Virus record (IMG/VR): IMGVR_UViG_2585427708_000005
Length of the DNA stretch: 64,000 nt
Reading direction: 5' to 3' (one strand)
Origin: a virus
Lineage: Duplodnaviria > Heunggongvirae > Uroviricota > Caudoviricetes
In this document: piece by piece, positions 20,182 through 28,502 of the stretch
Numbering within the stretch: the first letter of the stretch is position 1
How the letters are laid out: the number at the start of each line of letters is the position of its first letter
Program-made: the position numbers and the translations under genes
The notes under the pieces: generated by a model
Told to the model about the DNA's origin: nothing
The model's database searches: none
Seen by the model: the letters and a program-made list of their open reading frames with translations, nothing else

Positions 20182-21771
20182 ATGTCTCAATATTCAATTC
20201 AACAGTCATTAGGTAATGCATCCGGCGTCGCGGTTAGCCCGATCAATGCCGATGCGACGTTATCTACCGGTGTTGCATTAAATAGCAGCTTGTGGGCTGG
20301 TATTGGCGTATTTGCGCGTGGCAAGCCGTTTACTGTTCTTGCGGTTACTGAGTCCAATTACAAAGATGTTCTCGGCGAACCGCTGAAGCCGTCTTCCGGC
20401 TCACAGTTCGAACCAATTCGCCATGTATACGAAGCTATTCAGCAAACGTCAGGTTATGTTGTTCGTGCTGTTCCGGATGATGCGAAGTTCCCGATTATTA
20501 TGTTCGATGAATCAGGCGAACCGGCTTACAGTGCGTTGCCATACGGTTCTGAAATTGAACTTGATAGTGGCGAAGCCTTTGCTATCTACGTTGATGATGG
20601 TGATCCGTGTATTTCACCTACCCGTGAGTTAACCATCGAAACGGCAACAGCGGACAGCGCGGGTAATGAACGCTTCCTCTTAAAACTGACCCAGACGACT
20701 TCGCTCGGCGTGGTAACGACCCTGGAGACACACACTGTGTCTTTGGCGGAAGAAGCGAAAGATGACATGGGCCGCTTGTGTTATCTGCCTACGGCTCTGG
20801 AAGCCCGTTCTAAATATCTGCGCGCGGTTGTTAATGAAGAGCTGATTTCGACGGCGAAAGTAACAAATAAAAAATCGCTGGCGTTCACTGGTGGTACCAA
20901 CGGTGATCAGTCGAAAATCTCAACCGCTGCGTACCTGCGTGCGGTTAAGGTGCTGAACAATGCGCCGTACATGTACACCGCTGTTCTCGGCCTGGGTTGC
21001 TATGACAATGCGGCGATCACCGCGTTAGGTAATATCTGTTCTGATCGCCTGATTGATGGCTTCTTTGATGTCAAACCGACATTGACGTATACGGAAGCGC
21101 TCTCTGCTGTTGAAGATACCGGTTTACTTGGTACCGATTATGTAAGCTGTGCTGTCTATCACTACCCGTTCTCCTGCAAAGACAAATGGACCCAATCCCG
21201 TGTGGTCTTTGGTCTGTCTGGCGTGGCGTATGCGGCGAAAGCTCGTGGCGTCAAGAAAAACTCTGATGTCGGCGGTTGGCATTACTCACCGGCTGGTGAA
21301 GAACGTGCCGTCATTGCTCGTGCGTCAATTCAACCGCTGTATCCGGAAGATACCCCGGACGAAGAAGCAATGGTCAAGGGCCGTCTCAATAAAGTATCTG
21401 TTGGCACCTCTGGCCAGATGATCATCGACGATGCTTTAACTTGCTGCACGCAGGATAACTATCTGCACTTCCAGCACGTCCCATCCCTGATGAATGCAAT
21501 CAGCCGTTTCTTTGTCCAGTTAGCCCGACAGATGAAGCATAGCCCGGACGGTATTACTGCGGCTGGCCTGACTAAAGGGATGACCAAACTTTTAGATCGC
21601 TTTGTCGCCTCCGGCGCTCTGGTGGCTCCTCGTGATCCTGATGCTGACGGTACAGAACCGTATGTGCTGAAAGTTACGCAGGCGGAATTCGATAAATGGG
21701 AAGTAGTCTGGGCCTGCTGCCCGACTGGCGTAGCCCGTCGTATCCAGGGCGTACCGCTGCTTATTAAGTAA
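20182..21771 (+). CDS. tail sheath protein candidate (gp22-like by position)
   Basis: 529 aa; size and position consistent with contractile sheath; no motif verified. Confidence 0.55.
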   Translation: MSQYSIQQSLGNASGVAVSPINADATLSTGVALNSSLWAGIGVFARGKPFTVLAVTESNYKDVLGEPLKPSSGSQFEPIRHVYEAIQQTSGYVVRAVPDDAKFPIIMFDESGEPAYSALPYGSEIELDSGEAFAIYVDDGDPCISPTRELTIETATADSAGNERFLLKLTQTTSLGVVTTLETHTVSLAEEAKDDMGRLCYLPTALEARSKYLRAVVNEELISTAKVTNKKSLAFTGGTNGDQSKISTAAYLRAVKVLNNAPYMYTAVLGLGCYDNAAITALGNICSDRLIDGFFDVKPTLTYTEALSAVEDTGLLGTDYVSCAVYHYPFSCKDKWTQSRVVFGLSGVAYAAKARGVKKNSDVGGWHYSPAGEERAVIARASIQPLYPEDTPDEEAMVKGRLNKVSVGTSGQMIIDDALTCCTQDNYLHFQHVPSLMNAISRFFVQLARQMKHSPDGITAAGLTKGMTKLLDRFVASGALVAPRDPDADGTEPYVLKVTQAEFDKWEVVWACCPTGVARRIQGVPLLIK

Positions 21772-22631: not shown

Positions 22632-23213
22632 ATGGCACCTATACCTTATGGGGTTTACAGCCAGGCTGACGGTGTATCGCCATTTCTGAAAGTTACTTTA
22701 ACGAACTCTCAGTACCAGGTTACCGGATATATCAGCCAGGGGGCAGCAATGAACATGGCCCAGAATTGGGAAGCGCCGTTTACCGGTATGTCCATGGGGT
22801 CTGTTGCTGGTGCCTTCAGTGGTTTTGCGCAGGTTGGTACTGAAACAACGTCGGTGGCCCGTTGGAACAGCTTAATGGTTTGGGAGGGGGGAACACCGCC
22901 AACTTTCACGCTGCCAGTAACTTTCATCGCTTTGTTTGATCCATTCACGGAGGTTTCAGGAGCTATCGCCGCATTGTCAGCGATGATTAGCCCGGAACTT
23001 AAAGATGCCAGTATTGGTGGTCGAATCCCGGAGCGTGTGACGCTAAACATTGGTCGCCAGATCAACATCATTGATGTCGCTATCCAGGACATAAGTTTCG
23101 ATCTCGATGCGCCCAGGGACAGCAATGGGCATTTCCTGAAAAACACCGTCAACCTCCAGTTGACCGGTTCTTCGATATATAACAGCTCCGATATTGTTCG
23201 GGCGTTCCAGTAA
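22632..23213 (+). CDS. hypothetical tail protein (193 aa)
   Basis: ORF in structural operon; no motif. Confidence 0.5.
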   Translation: MAPIPYGVYSQADGVSPFLKVTLTNSQYQVTGYISQGAAMNMAQNWEAPFTGMSMGSVAGAFSGFAQVGTETTSVARWNSLMVWEGGTPPTFTLPVTFIALFDPFTEVSGAIAALSAMISPELKDASIGGRIPERVTLNIGRQINIIDVAIQDISFDLDAPRDSNGHFLKNTVNLQLTGSSIYNSSDIVRAFQ

Positions 23214-23224
23214 AAGGATTTTAT

Positions 23225-23734
23225 ATGGGGCACAATAACACTAACGGAAACCGTAAATTTATTAAGGGCCGCTATACTGCCAACGCGGCCAAAGGCGAAC
23301 GACTGGTATCTTCTGAATTCCAGCTCACTGTTGCAGGCCATGAAGATATCAGCGTACTGGTTCGCACGTCGCAAATTCCTGAAATGACCCGCGAGGATGT
23401 GGAGGACTATGGTCCGAATGGTGTGAAGTTCAACCAGCACGGTCCAATTCGAAACTCTGGGGAAATCCAGGTCCAGTGCGTGGAGACTATCGAAGGCGAT
23501 ATTCTTCAGTTCATTAAAGATCGCATTGCGGCGAAGGACTATGTTGATATCACGATGGCTGCTACCCCTGAATCCAAATCTTCCGGGGTTAACGCTGTGA
23601 CAAAAGCTGCTACAACAATTGAAATGTTGGACTGCAAAATCTACAGTGATGCAATCGACTTTAGTACCGAAGATGTGACTGCCGCTGTGCGCCCGTCACT
23701 TCGTATCGTTTACAACTGGATTGAGTGGGATTAA
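23225..23734 (+). CDS. hypothetical tail protein (169 aa)
   Basis: ORF in structural operon followed by terminator. Confidence 0.5.
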   Translation: MGHNNTNGNRKFIKGRYTANAAKGERLVSSEFQLTVAGHEDISVLVRTSQIPEMTREDVEDYGPNGVKFNQHGPIRNSGEIQVQCVETIEGDILQFIKDRIAAKDYVDITMAATPESKSSGVNAVTKAATTIEMLDCKIYSDAIDFSTEDVTAAVRPSLRIVYNWIEWD

Positions 23735-23753
23735 GAGTCATCCCTTGTATTTT

Positions 23754-23778
23754 AAAGCTCCTGCGGGAGCTTTTTTTG
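23754..23778 (+). terminator. rho-independent terminator
   Basis: agctcc-tgc-gggagct hairpin followed by TTTTTTTG. Confidence 0.8.
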
Positions 23779-23818
23779 TGCTTAAATTATGCTGGTATAG
23801 CGAAATTTTGAGCATATT

Positions 23819-24115
23819 ATGGAAATTGATTTTTCATACTCTCCTGAAACGATAGAACGAAGATTCGAAATAATTGGATGCAAAACTATTTCAGAGGAGC
23901 ATTATTGGATTCTCTATGATGCCAATACATGGTTATGTGCCTTAGCAGAATGTCGGTCATCGTTATGTGCAGGGGAGGGAGGACTTCGACATAAGGTGCT
24001 GGCTACACTTGAAGTGAACACGTTACGATATTGGTGTGTCGAAATACTTAGGAATAACAAAGAATTACATTTATTATTGCTGAATAAATGTGCACCTCTG
24101 CGCAGAAAAGCATAA
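23819..24115 (+). CDS. hypothetical protein (98 aa, Cys-rich)
   Basis: ORF with several Cys; no motif. Confidence 0.4.
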   Translation: MEIDFSYSPETIERRFEIIGCKTISEEHYWILYDANTWLCALAECRSSLCAGEGGLRHKVLATLEVNTLRYWCVEILRNNKELHLLLLNKCAPLRRKA

Positions 24116-24242
24116 GAAAACCCAACAGCCATACTGGAATTATCAGAAGAATATGTGCGGAAAGTTATAGCTAGCTATTGAAAAGCTAAAGTAGATCGGT
24201 TAGATTTGCCTTACTCATCTACCATGTGTAGAAAGAGCGATC

Positions 24243-24283
24243 GAACCCGATACATAGCAATATGTGTCGGGTTCAGCTTTTTT
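24243..24283. terminator. terminator-like imperfect hairpin with T-run between convergent genes
   Basis: gaacccgatacata ... tatgtgtcgggttc followed by TTTTTT. Confidence 0.5.
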
Positions 24284-24746
24284 ATGTCCCAAGCGCTCTT
24301 TTTCTGCTTTGTTTGAGTGTTCTGATTTTACTGTTATAGGTTACAACATAGGCTGTTTTAAGAAGCCAATAGTCTCTACGTGCGGATAGCACAACAACGT
24401 AGTTTTCACACTCGTTCCAGATTACCCATTCTTCAGTTGGTCCTCGTCTTTCAGACCAACATGATATATCGGAATGGTTATAATTCCTTATCATATGCGC
24501 GATCCAGCGGATCCGCTTACACCGTTCAAGATCAGGTATTCGTTCTTCTTCTATTTTTCCCTCTGATACTAAATGCCAAAATCCGAACTCTTTCCCATCA
24601 TATTCCGGTGAATAACGTAACCGAACAGGGAGACCCTTAAACGTTATATTAGAGATTAAAATGTCTTCTCTGACAACATAATATACATCGTCTATATACT
24701 CTTGCCAACTTCCATTGAAGTACAATAAATCTGGCATTTGAAGCAT
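24282..24746 (-). CDS. hypothetical protein (154 aa), second gene of AT-rich two-gene operon
   Basis: ATG overlaps upstream stop (TGATG) with GGGAGG RBS inside upstream gene; no recognised motif. Confidence 0.5.
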   Translation of the reverse strand: MLQMPDLLYFNGSWQEYIDDVYYVVREDILISNITFKGLPVRLRYSPEYDGKEFGFWHLVSEGKIEEERIPDLERCKRIRWIAHMIRNYNHSDISCWSERRGPTEEWVIWNECENYVVVLSARRDYWLLKTAYVVTYNSKIRTLKQSRKRALGT

Positions 24747-25450
24747 CAGCGAGCCTCCCACACGAAAATATTAAATTTACTTTCTGTTGGAAGAGTGCTT
24801 TTTAGTAAATCCCTGTTTGTATGTGATTTTATCCTGTTTATGACTTGGATTTTTCCCGCGTTGCTATTCATTCCTCGATGAACGTAGCCTAACGCACCAA
24901 TGAAAAGATCCGTTAGCTGCAATTGTTGCACTTCATGAGATCGTATATGTTGAATTCTGTTTATCGACTCATGATTGTAATCATAGCGATCATTGTGAAG
25001 AACTCCTCTTAATTTCTCAATTTTTTCAATGCCTAAAGTATCTTTTATATCTAGGTAGATATTGTATGTGTTGTTACTTTCTATTATGTTTTTTAAGACA
25101 TAAAAAAACATCTTATAATAGAAAGTATTATGATCTTGATGGAATCGAGCATGGTCCAGTTGCTCTTTATCAGGAACAACAACACCTCTAAAGCGCAATG
25201 CTGGGTTGCTGAAGAAGTAATCTACGACATCTAAGTAAAATTCAACCTTGGACGCAGATACTTTAGTCCACTTGATTTCGAAATCAGGTTTTAGATTGTG
25301 TTTTAATTTTAATTCCTTGATGTCTCTAGCAATTTTTTTTGTGATAGTGCCAGGGCACCAAAGCGCACCCAATACCATGACTTTATTATGATCATTTAGT
25401 AGGTGACAGGATTCATCGCAGAATACATTAAATGTTCTTCGGTTCAACAT
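24746..25450 (-). CDS. hypothetical protein, tentatively DUF3800-like (234 aa)
   Basis: N-terminus FNVFCDESCHL resembles the (Y/F)xDESG start of DUF3800 proteins; strongly AT-rich gene. Confidence 0.45.
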   Translation of the reverse strand: MLNRRTFNVFCDESCHLLNDHNKVMVLGALWCPGTITKKIARDIKELKLKHNLKPDFEIKWTKVSASKVEFYLDVVDYFFSNPALRFRGVVVPDKEQLDHARFHQDHNTFYYKMFFYVLKNIIESNNTYNIYLDIKDTLGIEKIEKLRGVLHNDRYDYNHESINRIQHIRSHEVQQLQLTDLFIGALGYVHRGMNSNAGKIQVINRIKSHTNRDLLKSTLPTESKFNIFVWEAR

Positions 25451-25618
25451 GTTAACTCCACTTATTGTTAGGTAGAATTGTCCGTTAGTTGTTTATTAAT
25501 TGCAATAATGGGACGTCCAGTTTTGGCAACAGTGCCCTCTTACCAGGACGCCTATGAGTTTGCCTCATGGCAAACTAGAGGCGTTGAAAGTATGCATGGT
25601 TATAATTAGAACAATTCA

Positions 25619-26464
25619 TTACCCTCTGAATCCCGCCGGTATACCCCATTGTTCGTTATCTTTATTTTTGGCTAAAACCGCATTAAGAGCTTCGTTTACC
25701 GTCATGCAATGCGGTAGGTTATCGAAGTTTGATATCCCGCCAATATCAGGCGAACGCTTGTTCTTCAGGTAAGCATATTTCCGCGCAGCCGCCTCTACTT
25801 TCTGCTTGAACTCATGTTTTTGAGTGCGTTTTTTGGATAACCGCAGATTGTCAGCCTTTGCTTTTGCCTCAGCGATCCATGAAGTCAATTTTTTGAGTCT
25901 GGTCGTTCCGGCACCGCCGGAAACTGATCTTTTTGTTTTTTTAACTTGTGACTTCTTATTCTTTATTGCCACGTCATCCTGACAGGGGGAGGGGGTATCA
26001 TTTTGATATGGGGGTGTGGTTAAAAAATCAAATAAAGCCAATGTCTTAGCGAGAACAGCTTTAACCTTGGTTGCGGCTGAAGAGATCTTTAATTTGCTTT
26101 CAGTCAGCGCGTTTTTAGCTTGTTGTGCGAAGGCCAAAAAGGATGGTGTAAACCGGTACAGGTTAGCGCGACGTTCACGGTGATCGCCGATAACAATCTC
26201 TACAGACAGAATTCCTTTGTTTACAGCTTCACGGAATGCACGAACGACGGTTGATTGGCTATAACCAGTTTCTGCCGCGATCAGGCGGTGAGGCTTGTGA
26301 ATGAAGTATTCACTGGTTGTTGCCGCGAGATTTGCACATTGCGACAGGATATGCCCGGCGCTACGGGATAGACCGGAGTGTGTTACAAAGCAGGCCAATT
26401 CATAGCCAGAAAAAGTAAAATCGCTCATCGTTATACAGCTCAGGAAAGTGACTTTAGCCAGCAT
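25619..26464 (-). CDS. repL: lytic replication initiator RepL
   Basis: 281 aa; position downstream of kilA; HTH-like segment STVVRAFREAVNKGIL; size matches P1 RepL. Confidence 0.75.
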   Translation of the reverse strand: MLAKVTFLSCITMSDFTFSGYELACFVTHSGLSRSAGHILSQCANLAATTSEYFIHKPHRLIAAETGYSQSTVVRAFREAVNKGILSVEIVIGDHRERRANLYRFTPSFLAFAQQAKNALTESKLKISSAATKVKAVLAKTLALFDFLTTPPYQNDTPSPCQDDVAIKNKKSQVKKTKRSVSGGAGTTRLKKLTSWIAEAKAKADNLRLSKKRTQKHEFKQKVEAAARKYAYLKNKRSPDIGGISNFDNLPHCMTVNEALNAVLAKNKDNEQWGIPAGFRG

Positions 26465-26493
26465 TACAATGCTGGTGGTTCTTACTACGTCTG

Positions 26494-27294
26494 TTAGCGC
26501 GTTGCCGCGACAGGTACCAGCACACCAGCATCAAGCAATCGCTTCATCAGCCACTGCTGACCTTTGCCGGTTATACGAGTCGTGAAAGAAATCCTGCTTC
26601 CATTGCTTGTATCGATCACGGTTTCTTTAAGGGTGAAATACCCACGGGATATGTATTCTTGTTTGGGGACGTTCCTGCGTTCACCGGTTGCGATCAGAAT
26701 TCCGTTATCACGCAACCAGGTGAAGAGATAGTTTTGGCCCAGGCCGAGCACTTTGGCATAGTTGCCGATTAGAACCCCGCTGGCGGTAGCAACGCGTTCG
26801 GCGAATTCGACTTTAGGTGCATCCATCAGCATTTTTTGCTCCAGCCGTTGCTTTTGCTCTGCCAGGTCAGCAGCCAAACGGAGAGCTTCTGGGAGGCTCT
26901 TCGGAATAGCAGGTTGTAATCTTCCGGCTCGATAGTCGATAAATGTCTGGTTTACCTTCAGCCGAAACGCGGGAGAAATCCAGCCTGCGTACTCCACTGC
27001 GAGCAATTCATGGGCAAAAGTGCCGCCGCCACGGCCTTCGAACGAAACTATGCAATTCTGCATAGTTTCTTTTTCAAGCTCTTCGATGAGCTGTTTGGCT
27101 GACAGCGTTCTTAGCCATTGAGCTGGCGCTTTATGGGCACCGAGTCCGCTCGCTCTGTGTAGAGCATTAAGGTTGTAACGGCCAGCGCGGTCGGTCGTAA
27201 TTTCAACACCACAAATAACAGGCAGAGTGGTTGAAGGATCGACATTTTGATGAAGGTTTGATATATTCATATCCGCATTGAATGTTTGTTGCAT
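26494..27294 (-). CDS. kilA: KilA (KilA-N DNA-binding domain plus KilAC/Ant-C domain)
   Basis: 266 aa; C-terminal 135 aa ~65% identical to C-terminus of adjacent Ant; preceded by C1 operator. Confidence 0.75.
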   Translation of the reverse strand: MQQTFNADMNISNLHQNVDPSTTLPVICGVEITTDRAGRYNLNALHRASGLGAHKAPAQWLRTLSAKQLIEELEKETMQNCIVSFEGRGGGTFAHELLAVEYAGWISPAFRLKVNQTFIDYRAGRLQPAIPKSLPEALRLAADLAEQKQRLEQKMLMDAPKVEFAERVATASGVLIGNYAKVLGLGQNYLFTWLRDNGILIATGERRNVPKQEYISRGYFTLKETVIDTSNGSRISFTTRITGKGQQWLMKRLLDAGVLVPVAATR

Positions 27295-27363
27295 TTTTTC
27301 TCCAAATTTGCATCAACCTTCAATCACCAGCTCGAAATGGTGATTCTTTGCACTTAGAAAACG

Positions 27364-27380
27364 AAATTTATTAGAGCAAA
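27364..27380. promoter_or_regulatory. C1 operator-like site upstream of kilA-repL (Op53-like)
   Basis: AAATTTATTAGAGCAAA, 16/17. Confidence 0.6.
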
Positions 27381-27458
27381 TTTTTCTAACTCGATCCAGA
27401 TCGGGTTGGACGATCTGCTCAGAAACCTGCCAGTTTGCTGGCAGGTTTTTTTCTTTTG

Positions 27459-28502
27459 TTAACCTATTGCTACTGGTTTTAACAAACCAGCATCAAGTAG
27501 CTTGCGAGTTAACCACTGCTGGCCTTTACCCGTTAATTGGGGCGTCAGCCGTATCTGGTAGCCATTTTCATCATCCAGCACCACTTCTTTCACCGTGAAA
27601 TACCCGGCGTTGATGTACTGTTGGCGCGGTACGTTTTTGCGCGCTCCAAAAGCCATGAGAATGCCATTCTGGCGCAACCATGAGAAAAGGGCGTTTTGCT
27701 TAAGTCCAACGACCTTTGCAAAGTTCCCGATCAGGATTCCATTAGCCACTGATACCCGGTCGGCAAAATCGACTTTAGGGGCAGCGGCCACCAGCTGTTG
27801 TTCCAGCTGCATTTTCTGTTCTGCTAACTCGGCAGCCAGGCGTAGAGCTTCTGGTAATGTTTGGGGGATCGATGGGGCAGGGGAGTTTGCCTGCTGCAAT
27901 TCTTCCAGTTTGTCGATCAGCGAACGGCGGACCGCTTTTGACTCGCGCGCGGCGACTCGCAAGGCTTGTTTGTAGGTCATGGTGATGACCTCAAAAGAGC
28001 GCCCAGCCCTTGTGCCATGGGATTTTGCACTTTTTGTGTAAAATTCACCTTCAAGTTCATCGAGTATTTTTTCGATGAATTTATTGTTTCTAACCTCTGG
28101 TTCTCCACATAACTTGCGTGCCTCATTGACCATCTTCAACAATGTTTGGCTGTCGATTGTGTCTCCGGTGTTGGGGATGACATTCACGGCTGGTGTTGGC
28201 GTAGCTGACGTAACAGGTGCTGGTTTCTCAACATTCAAATTTTTACCGGTCACTCTATGTGCCTCCTTTCTCATTTCTGCTGCCACCGTTGCGTAACGTA
28301 GACGTCCTTGTTCAATCAAATAATCCCTGATCTCGGCTATCAGTAGCCTGTTGATCACTGCCTTATCTGTTCGGGTATAAAAACGCCTGGTTATCATGAA
28401 ATAGTTGGCAATTGCGCCGGGGATCTCCCGCGTCGGCATACAGGCAGTATGCAGGGCGATTGCTTCGGCTATGTCATTACGGGTGACGAGAGGTTTTTTC
28501 AT
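27459..28502 (-). CDS. ant: antirepressor Ant (AntA N-domain plus KilAC C-domain)
   Basis: 347 aa; start codon overlaps icd stop (translational coupling); C-terminal KilAC domain. Confidence 0.8.
   Translation of the reverse strand: MKKPLVTRNDIAEAIALHTACMPTREIPGAIANYFMITRRFYTRTDKAVINRLLIAEIRDYLIEQGRLRYATVAAEMRKEAHRVTGKNLNVEKPAPVTSATPTPAVNVIPNTGDTIDSQTLLKMVNEARKLCGEPEVRNNKFIEKILDELEGEFYTKSAKSHGTRAGRSFEVITMTYKQALRVAARESKAVRRSLIDKLEELQQANSPAPSIPQTLPEALRLAAELAEQKMQLEQQLVAAAPKVDFADRVSVANGILIGNFAKVVGLKQNALFSWLRQNGILMAFGARKNVPRQQYINAGYFTVKEVVLDDENGYQIRLTPQLTGKGQQWLTRKLLDAGLLKPVAIG

Follow-up and report, generated by a model that had tools for sequence, protein, structure and literature searches.

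A 64,000-nucleotide stretch of Caudoviricetes DNA (IMG/VR record IMGVR_UViG_2585427708_000005; the whole stretch is hereafter called the window) carries, next to repL, an AT-rich pair of genes that, judged by its sequence, is the rlfA/rlfB pair of phage P1 itself and not a substitute for it. The pair, rlfAB, is a self-contained, horizontally mobile two-gene module, separate from the lytic replicon, and its products match both components of the PADLOC candidate system PDC-M04. We give about an even chance to the reading that rlfAB is a nuclease-based conflict module, acting as an abortive-infection or exclusion system. The features that define the operon are as follows.

24746–25450, minus strand: rlfA (open reading frame (ORF) A), encoding a DUF3800 protein of 234 amino acids with the N-terminus MLNRRTFNVFCDESCHL
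24282–24746, minus strand: rlfB (ORF B), encoding 154 amino acids from an ATG start; member of a family that has no Pfam model
24744–24759, minus strand: coupling junction, in which the rlfA stop codon TGA (24746–24748) overlaps the rlfB start codon ATG (24744–24746) in the sequence TGATG
24243–24274: 14-bp palindromic hairpin between the convergent genes pmgF and rlfB, abutting the rlfB stop codon

The identity with P1 extends from the proteins to the surrounding DNA. RlfA shares 233 of 234 residues (99%) with its P1 counterpart and RlfB 150 of 154 (97%). A megablast comparison of positions 23700–26500 with phage records gave a collinear, full-length match that is 97.1% identical to P1 (NC_005856, 50690–53488), and the same 2.8-kb segment is 96.9% identical to P7, where the genes are named rapA/rapB, and 97.6% identical to JL22. 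Synteny with P1 is kept, the order bplB–pmgF–rlfB–rlfA–repL–kilA being found in the same position and orientation. The stretch is 100% identical to the Escherichia coli plasmid NZ_CP027590.1, a 92-kb P1-like phage-plasmid. The original prediction, made from the letters of the DNA, had set the pair against the P1 genes found at this position; since the pair is rlfA/rlfB themselves, that contrast fails. The prediction had also said that clear orthology to conserved P1 genes of ordinary base composition would count against it. Orthology is indeed clear, but the P1 copy is equally AT-rich, and conservation of the genes across P1-like elements is lacking. Already on record before this analysis were the two genes, the low-GC variable slot in which they lie, the placing of RlfA as a DUF3800/RNase H2 protein and the listing of the pair as a defence candidate.

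Both genes lie on the minus strand and form the coupled operon that had been described, with the TGATG overlap and a Shine-Dalgarno sequence, GGGAGG, at 24754–24759, 7 nucleotides 5′ of the rlfB ATG; an upstream GTG start would also permit a 159-residue version of RlfB. Since RlfA has 5,460 relatives in a large protein database and an RlfB profile matches 1,791 clusters at 50% identity, nearly all of them free-standing proteins of 150–180 amino acids, rlfA and rlfB are real genes and not chance ORFs. The AT-richness relative to the flanking genes was likewise borne out: the operon has a GC content of 36.7% (∼34% at third codon positions), compared with 46.4% for the whole window, 45.6% for repL, 50.2% for kilA and 50.9% for a 529-codon virion-gene ORF (20182–21771). 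The statement that the operon is bounded by terminators holds on the rlfB side, where the hairpin at 24243–24274 is strong and followed by a T-run, making it a terminator on the plus strand; the minus strand forms the same stem with a weak T-tract. It does not hold on the repL side, where the sole hairpin in the repL–rlfA gap (25556–25575) has no T-run. The bplB terminator is found at 23754–23773.

RlfA belongs to the DUF3800 family, as had been guessed from its first residues. It scores 54.1 bits against the Pfam model (PF12686; gathering cutoff, 21) and covers profile positions 1–148 of 149. The conserved residues are D12, E13, D134, D137, Q178 and D181, of which D12-E13 and Q178-x-x-D181 do not vary among 28 homologues and are present in at least 96% of 79. 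An N-terminal DE and a C-terminal QxxD motif characterise DUF3800 proteins (PMC7736814). The fold is RNase H2-like and the AlphaFold2 model is confident (pLDDT 88), so that RlfA is a predicted metal-dependent RNase H2-like nuclease with an intact DE...D...QxxD site. A literature search for a published nuclease assay of a DUF3800 protein found none, and neither RlfA nor RlfB has a match in NCBIfam. RlfA contains no DNA-binding domain and is hence not antitoxin-like.

The second protein is harder to place. RlfB has no Pfam match, and 75 diverse members of its family gave a single weak match, to DUF4258 (E 0.04). Profile searches of the PDB with two alignments were negative, as were hhalign comparisons with E. 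coli RelE and YafQ, and the source names of 120 distant relatives all read 'hypothetical'. The AlphaFold2 model is confident (pLDDT 92), and its best fold matches are toxin–antitoxin (TA) and colicin RNase toxins, a weak BECR/RelE-type resemblance for which Foldseek was not significant. Eight residues are invariant (F56, H58, R69, D72, R75, C76, R78 and W81). RlfB may thus be a small partner protein with an invariant His/Arg constellation on a RelE/colicin-D-like (BECR) fold, and a putative RNase. Its public labels differ from this: PHROG 16230 is named 'replication protein' and NCBI homologues are named 'oxidoreductase'. Because domain, fold and context searches give neither name any support, both look like annotation artefacts. 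Compared with RelE/ParE, YafQ, HigB, MqsR, colicin D and CdiA-CT, RlfB shows no detectable sequence relation, has an N-terminal extra part of ∼70 residues and is preceded by a partner enzyme. Sequence and gene context speak against a RelE/ParE toxin of a type II TA pair: RlfB belongs to no known toxin family by sequence, and there is no small DNA-binding antitoxin upstream, since the gene upstream of rlfB encodes a 234-residue RNase H2-like enzyme with a conserved active site.

RlfA and RlfB match components A and B of PADLOC PDC-M04 with E values of 1.2e-95 and 2.5e-51, respectively, and the genes are adjacent on one strand; here, the pair lies outside an R-M (restriction–modification) system. 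The PDC systems are 145 untested candidates, selected by 'guilt-by-embedding' in BREX, DISARM and type I R-M loci (bioRxiv 10.1101/2024.01.29.577857), and other authors exclude them as unvalidated. In the searchable literature we found no paper that mentions PDC-M04 and none that links it to rlfAB of P1. Relatives were scanned in one genome per species, which yielded 477 species with an RlfB relative from Proteobacteria, Nitrospirota, Planctomycetota, Verrucomicrobiota, Chloroflexota, Acidobacteriota, Bacteroidota, Cyanobacteria, Actinobacteria and Saccharibacteria/Patescibacteria; context was counted in the 80 loci that were kept. In 75 of these the RlfB gene directly follows a DUF3800 gene of the same orientation, and the remaining five comprise four artefacts of over-extended ORFs and one contig edge. 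Across phyla the A/B junctions overlap or abut, overlaps of 4 or 1 nucleotides being the commonest. Since pairing and order were held in every testable locus of the 80, with short overlaps, we conclude that the A–B pair is an obligate, translationally coupled unit. In two GC-rich loci (L083, 4440–9956; L048, 8409–9986) the DUF3800 domain falls within naive ORFs of 1,838 and 525 amino acids, the former overlapping a type I methylase match; these long ORFs are probably over-extensions.

In about half of the loci the pair keeps company with type I R-M genes. A type I gene lies on the same strand within 3 kb in 39 of 80 loci, as detected with hidden Markov models built from a Methylomonas locus. 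The nearest upstream neighbour is a type I specificity subunit in 21 (Pfam) to 23 (PADLOC) of 71 loci, and the nearest downstream neighbour is a type I restriction subunit in 17–18 of 72. Eleven of the 80 loci show full embedding in the order hsdS–A–B–hsdR, the Methylomonas operon hsdM–hsdS–A–B–hsdR being an example, and the start of A is often overlapped by the hsdS stop codon. All R-M embedding among the relatives is of type I, and the pair in the window is free-standing on a phage-plasmid. This linkage independently reproduces the basis on which PADLOC listed the candidate. Further neighbours include SIR2, TIR, GmrSD, AbiLi, PbeA, Csy1, SymE and AbiEii-type ATPases, and the closest enterobacterial copies outside P1 directly adjoin integrases, in Enterobacter ludwigii where a lambdoid prophage ends and in E. 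coli on the border of a mobilisable island linked to guaA. This company places the RlfAB family among conflict systems and not among housekeeping or replication genes. The earlier label 'candidate defence cargo' is therefore fair as far as the PDC-M04 matches and the relatives in type I R-M operons go, but a defence function is unproven. On the guaA-linked island, a ∼1,920-residue NACHT/AAA_16 nucleoside triphosphatase is encoded a few kb from an RlfAB pair of 67% identity (L009/L010, 19969–20702); this island may be a small defence island.

If rlfAB is a conflict module, an element that invades or replicates would supply a nucleic-acid signal, for example an RNA:DNA hybrid or a structured molecule, that RlfA recognises or processes. 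RlfB would next cleave cellular RNA (tRNA or mRNA) and so halt the growth of the competitor. Through translational coupling, the two proteins would be made in a fixed order and probably in a fixed ratio. In this scheme we infer that both proteins are active enzymes, what triggers them and that the outcome is defence. The PrrC anticodon nuclease, encoded between hsdS and hsdR in the EcoprrI operon, is an RNase that serves as a backup once a phage has inhibited restriction, and coupling of RlfAB to type I R-M systems would follow the same manner. The PADLOC authors draw the PrrC–EcoprrI parallel for embedded systems generally. RlfAB resembles PrrC in that, as a nuclease module, its genes separate hsdS from hsdR in a single orientation (in the 11 fully embedded loci), but differs from it in consisting of two proteins instead of one, in showing no sequence relation and in that half of its loci, including P1, have no R-M partner. 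A PrrC-type nuclease was rejected for the window: neither RlfA nor RlfB contains an ABC-ATPase domain, and the neighbours are repL and pmgF, not hsdS and hsdR.

DUF3800 nucleases also partner other immune systems, namely type VII retrons (PMC7736814) and Cas12a2/a3 (PMC10910872, PMC12669027). RlfA shares with the retron VII and Cas12a2/a3 partners (the latter TPR-DUF3800 proteins) the Pfam family, the RNase H2-like fold and the DE/QxxD site. In contrast to those systems, however, there is no reverse transcriptase, CRISPR array or TPR domain, either here or in 20 homologous loci, and the obligate partner is RlfB. A reading as a type VII retron or CRISPR accessory was accordingly dropped: the neighbours include no reverse transcriptase, and no array, TPR domain or Rfam match was present. 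Rfam searches detected no DUF3800-associated RNA motif of the kind described in PMC5737381, no retron RNA and no other structured RNA, either in positions 23000–27500 at E values up to 5 or, at the gathering threshold, in 20 homologous loci. A non-coding RNA partner for the RlfA subfamily is therefore unlikely. A fuller version of the conflict-module reading, which we offer tentatively and rate a little short of an even chance, is that rlfAB represents a mechanistically new two-nuclease immune system, in which an RNase H2-like sensor/nuclease is joined to an undescribed BECR-like RNase effector. It would serve as a PrrC-like backup in R-M operons when restriction is disabled and would exclude competing phages and plasmids in P1.

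Comparison with other P1-like elements showed how the pair is held in the phage genome. The features that bear on this are listed here.

23777–25604: variable low-GC cassette of 1,828 bp and 37.5% GC, comprising pmgF, rlfB, rlfA and the rlfA leader; breakpoints set by comparison with four loci (L003–L006)
23819–24115, plus strand: pmgF, 98 amino acids; completes the three genes of the cassette and converges on rlfB
25599–25615, minus strand: C1 operator Orlf (formerly Op55), just downstream of the repL stop codon; from the P1 annotation and alignment
25477–25505, minus strand: PrlfA, a weak predicted sigma-70 promoter (TTGCAA-17-GACAAT), transferred from the P1 annotation and conserved in sequence in the window

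One breakpoint of the cassette (23776/23777) lies just past the bplB terminator and the other (25604/25605) inside Orlf, so that the core half of the operator remains with the repL backbone, and every alternative cargo follows the same half-operator. rlfAB is present in 121 of 517 complete E. coli genomes with a P1-type repL (23%) and absent from the other 396; in PLSDB, the full segment is found in 98 of 680 records that match the flanks. Alternative occupants of the slot are hok/gef with a small membrane protein, Ail/Lom with a 210-residue PmgF-like protein, an N-acetyltransferase with a DNA-binding protein, and TnpB. The variability and low GC content of the slot have been published ('region 5' of eight variable regions; PMC9603915), and substitutions of rlfA–rlfB–pmgF among P1-like phages have been reported (PMC6906374). 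The suggestion of a variable cargo slot was thus correct: the bplB–repL slot is low in GC and holds different genes across P1-like elements. In P1, rlfAB is optional accessory cargo, placed just downstream of the C1-controlled kilA–repL early unit. The P1-type pmgF product is 42% identical, over 65 amino acids, to the N-terminal third of the 210-residue protein in the same slot of Salmonella phage SJ46 (L005, 1671–2303), and by this likeness pmgF may be what a truncation has left, and not a 'morphogenetic' gene. One further small protein (...WPLGIMFAATFLLMWIFTLPGDFYR...), predicted to lie in the membrane and belonging to no Pfam family, is common to the alternative cargos beside hok/gef or Ail/Lom (L003, 1560–2300; L004, 2463–2681; L005, 2483–2746).

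The commonest cargo of the bplB–repL slot in P1-like plasmids is hok/gef, a classic post-segregational killer. The hok/mok/sok system is a membrane toxin under antisense RNA control; like rlfAB, it can fill this P1 slot and is a small module of conflict or addiction, and it is unrelated to rlfAB in sequence and mechanism. Its presence there lends some weight to the idea that rlfAB is a TA-like addiction or stabilisation module, in which RlfB would be a growth-arresting RNase restrained by RlfA, and loss of the pair, or of the linked R-M operon or plasmid prophage, would be lethal, with no dedicated anti-phage role. Consistent with this, the pair is coupled with the smaller protein downstream, the top fold matches of RlfB are TA and colicin RNase toxins, and the pair occurs not only on plasmids and islands but also in R-M operons, and such operons are addictive in their own right. 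We nevertheless consider such a module unlikely to be the explanation: RlfA, at 234 residues, is an enzyme whose catalytic site is fully conserved and which lacks a DNA-binding domain, a sequence link to any TA family is absent, and P1 already carries phd-doc. A TA role would not preclude one in abortive infection.

The P1 annotation calls the genes 'replication-linked'. On that view RlfA, with its RNase H-like fold, might raise lytic replication by processing the R-loop or transcript at oriL, which lies inside repL, and RlfB would assist as cofactor. rlfAB indeed lies immediately downstream of repL, on the same strand and behind a C1 operator, repL and rlfAB are co-induced early in P1vir infection, an RNase H-type fold would suit primer or R-loop processing, and PHROG calls RlfB a 'replication protein'. 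However, 77% of repL-bearing E. coli elements lack rlfAB; the functional lytic-replicon segments of the PAC and pSCANS vectors end 4 nucleotides before rlfA according to the P1 annotation; the classic replicon fragment X15639 holds just the first ∼80 nucleotides of the gene; and a genome-wide CRISPR interference (CRISPRi) screen scores both rlfA and rlfB as non-essential (PMC10695390). In addition, most of the family is found where RepL is absent, with homologues in R-M operons and chromosomal islands of many phyla, and the 'replication' labels derive from position alone. Membership of the P1 lytic replicon (kilA–repL–oriL) therefore failed on distribution, vector segments and CRISPRi. Because the pair is absent from three quarters of repL elements, excluded from vector replicons and non-essential by CRISPRi, a replication role is contradicted, and we rate it very improbable; rlfAB is dispensable, being needed neither for replication nor for lytic growth. 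In the second efficiency-of-plating column of the same CRISPRi table (PMC10695390), rlfA, rlfB and pmgF show values of 0.06, 0.03 and 0.01, yet all three are scored non-essential; polarity or a roadblock in the neighbourhood of bplB, which is essential, may account for the drop in plating.

The window differs from P1 rlfAB by a few substitutions, one of which is inside the core of Orlf. The operator reads ATTGTTCTAATTATAAC here and ATTGCTCTAAT... in P1 and P7, a single C-to-T change in the conserved core that gives the variant ATTGTTCTAAT. Orlf was missed by a C1 consensus search allowing up to three mismatches and was located solely through alignment to the P1 annotation. Elsewhere in the window, eight matches to the C1 consensus ATTGCTCTAATAAATTT with at most two mismatches were found (6717, 6728, 11273, 27364, 29034, 53018, 56868 and 63333), compared with 0.47 expected, which fits a complete P1-type immunity network. 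PrlfA scores below threshold in our promoter scan. Since the annotated operator lies ∼95 nucleotides upstream of the predicted PrlfA, Orlf would act as a roadblock to read-through from repL and not as a promoter repressor.

These regulatory data are among several points that weigh against rlfAB being a conflict module. In the P1 annotation, rlfAB follows a C1 operator and the early lytic unit that C1 represses, and the P1vir transcriptome groups it with co-induced early lytic genes, including repL. Given this C1 context and early lytic grouping, lysogens may not express the pair, and such silence would be unusual in a defence carried by a prophage. Furthermore, we found no experiment showing defence by rlfAB or PDC-M04, the PDC systems being explicitly untested (bioRxiv 10.1101/2024.01.29.577857), addiction or co-regulation is another possible cause of the linkage to R-M operons, and the predicted fold of RlfB is weakly assigned.

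The same C1-controlled context and early lytic expression would suit a lytic-phase weapon, used in counter-defence or host takeover once C1 is lifted, which would degrade retron msDNA, the R-loops of RNA-guided systems, or host tRNA or mRNA in favour of P1. The co-occurrence of DUF3800 with retrons and Cas12a2/a3, whose intermediates are RNA:DNA hybrids, is in line with this idea (PMC7736814, PMC10910872). Most family members, however, are chromosomal and co-transcribed with host type I R-M genes, on the opposite side of the conflict, and in IMG/VR only 32 of 2.9 million viral contigs encode an RlfB relative, 14 of them P1-like. We therefore see only a slim chance that rlfAB serves such a purpose.

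Three links emerge from this analysis. The 'replication-linked' genes rlfA/rlfB of P1 are the PADLOC candidate PDC-M04; the 'replication' label rests on position and is contradicted by distribution; and the family is tied to type I R-M operons in about half of its occurrences, in many phyla. P1 is genetically tractable, so that a role in defence, exclusion or addiction is directly testable, and a positive result would correct the public misnomers 'replication protein' and 'oxidoreductase'. If the conflict-module reading is true, rlfAB would constitute a new two-nuclease system and provide the first function and biochemical role for free-standing DUF3800 nucleases, and two classic P1 genes that have been without a function since the genome annotation of 2004 would gain one.

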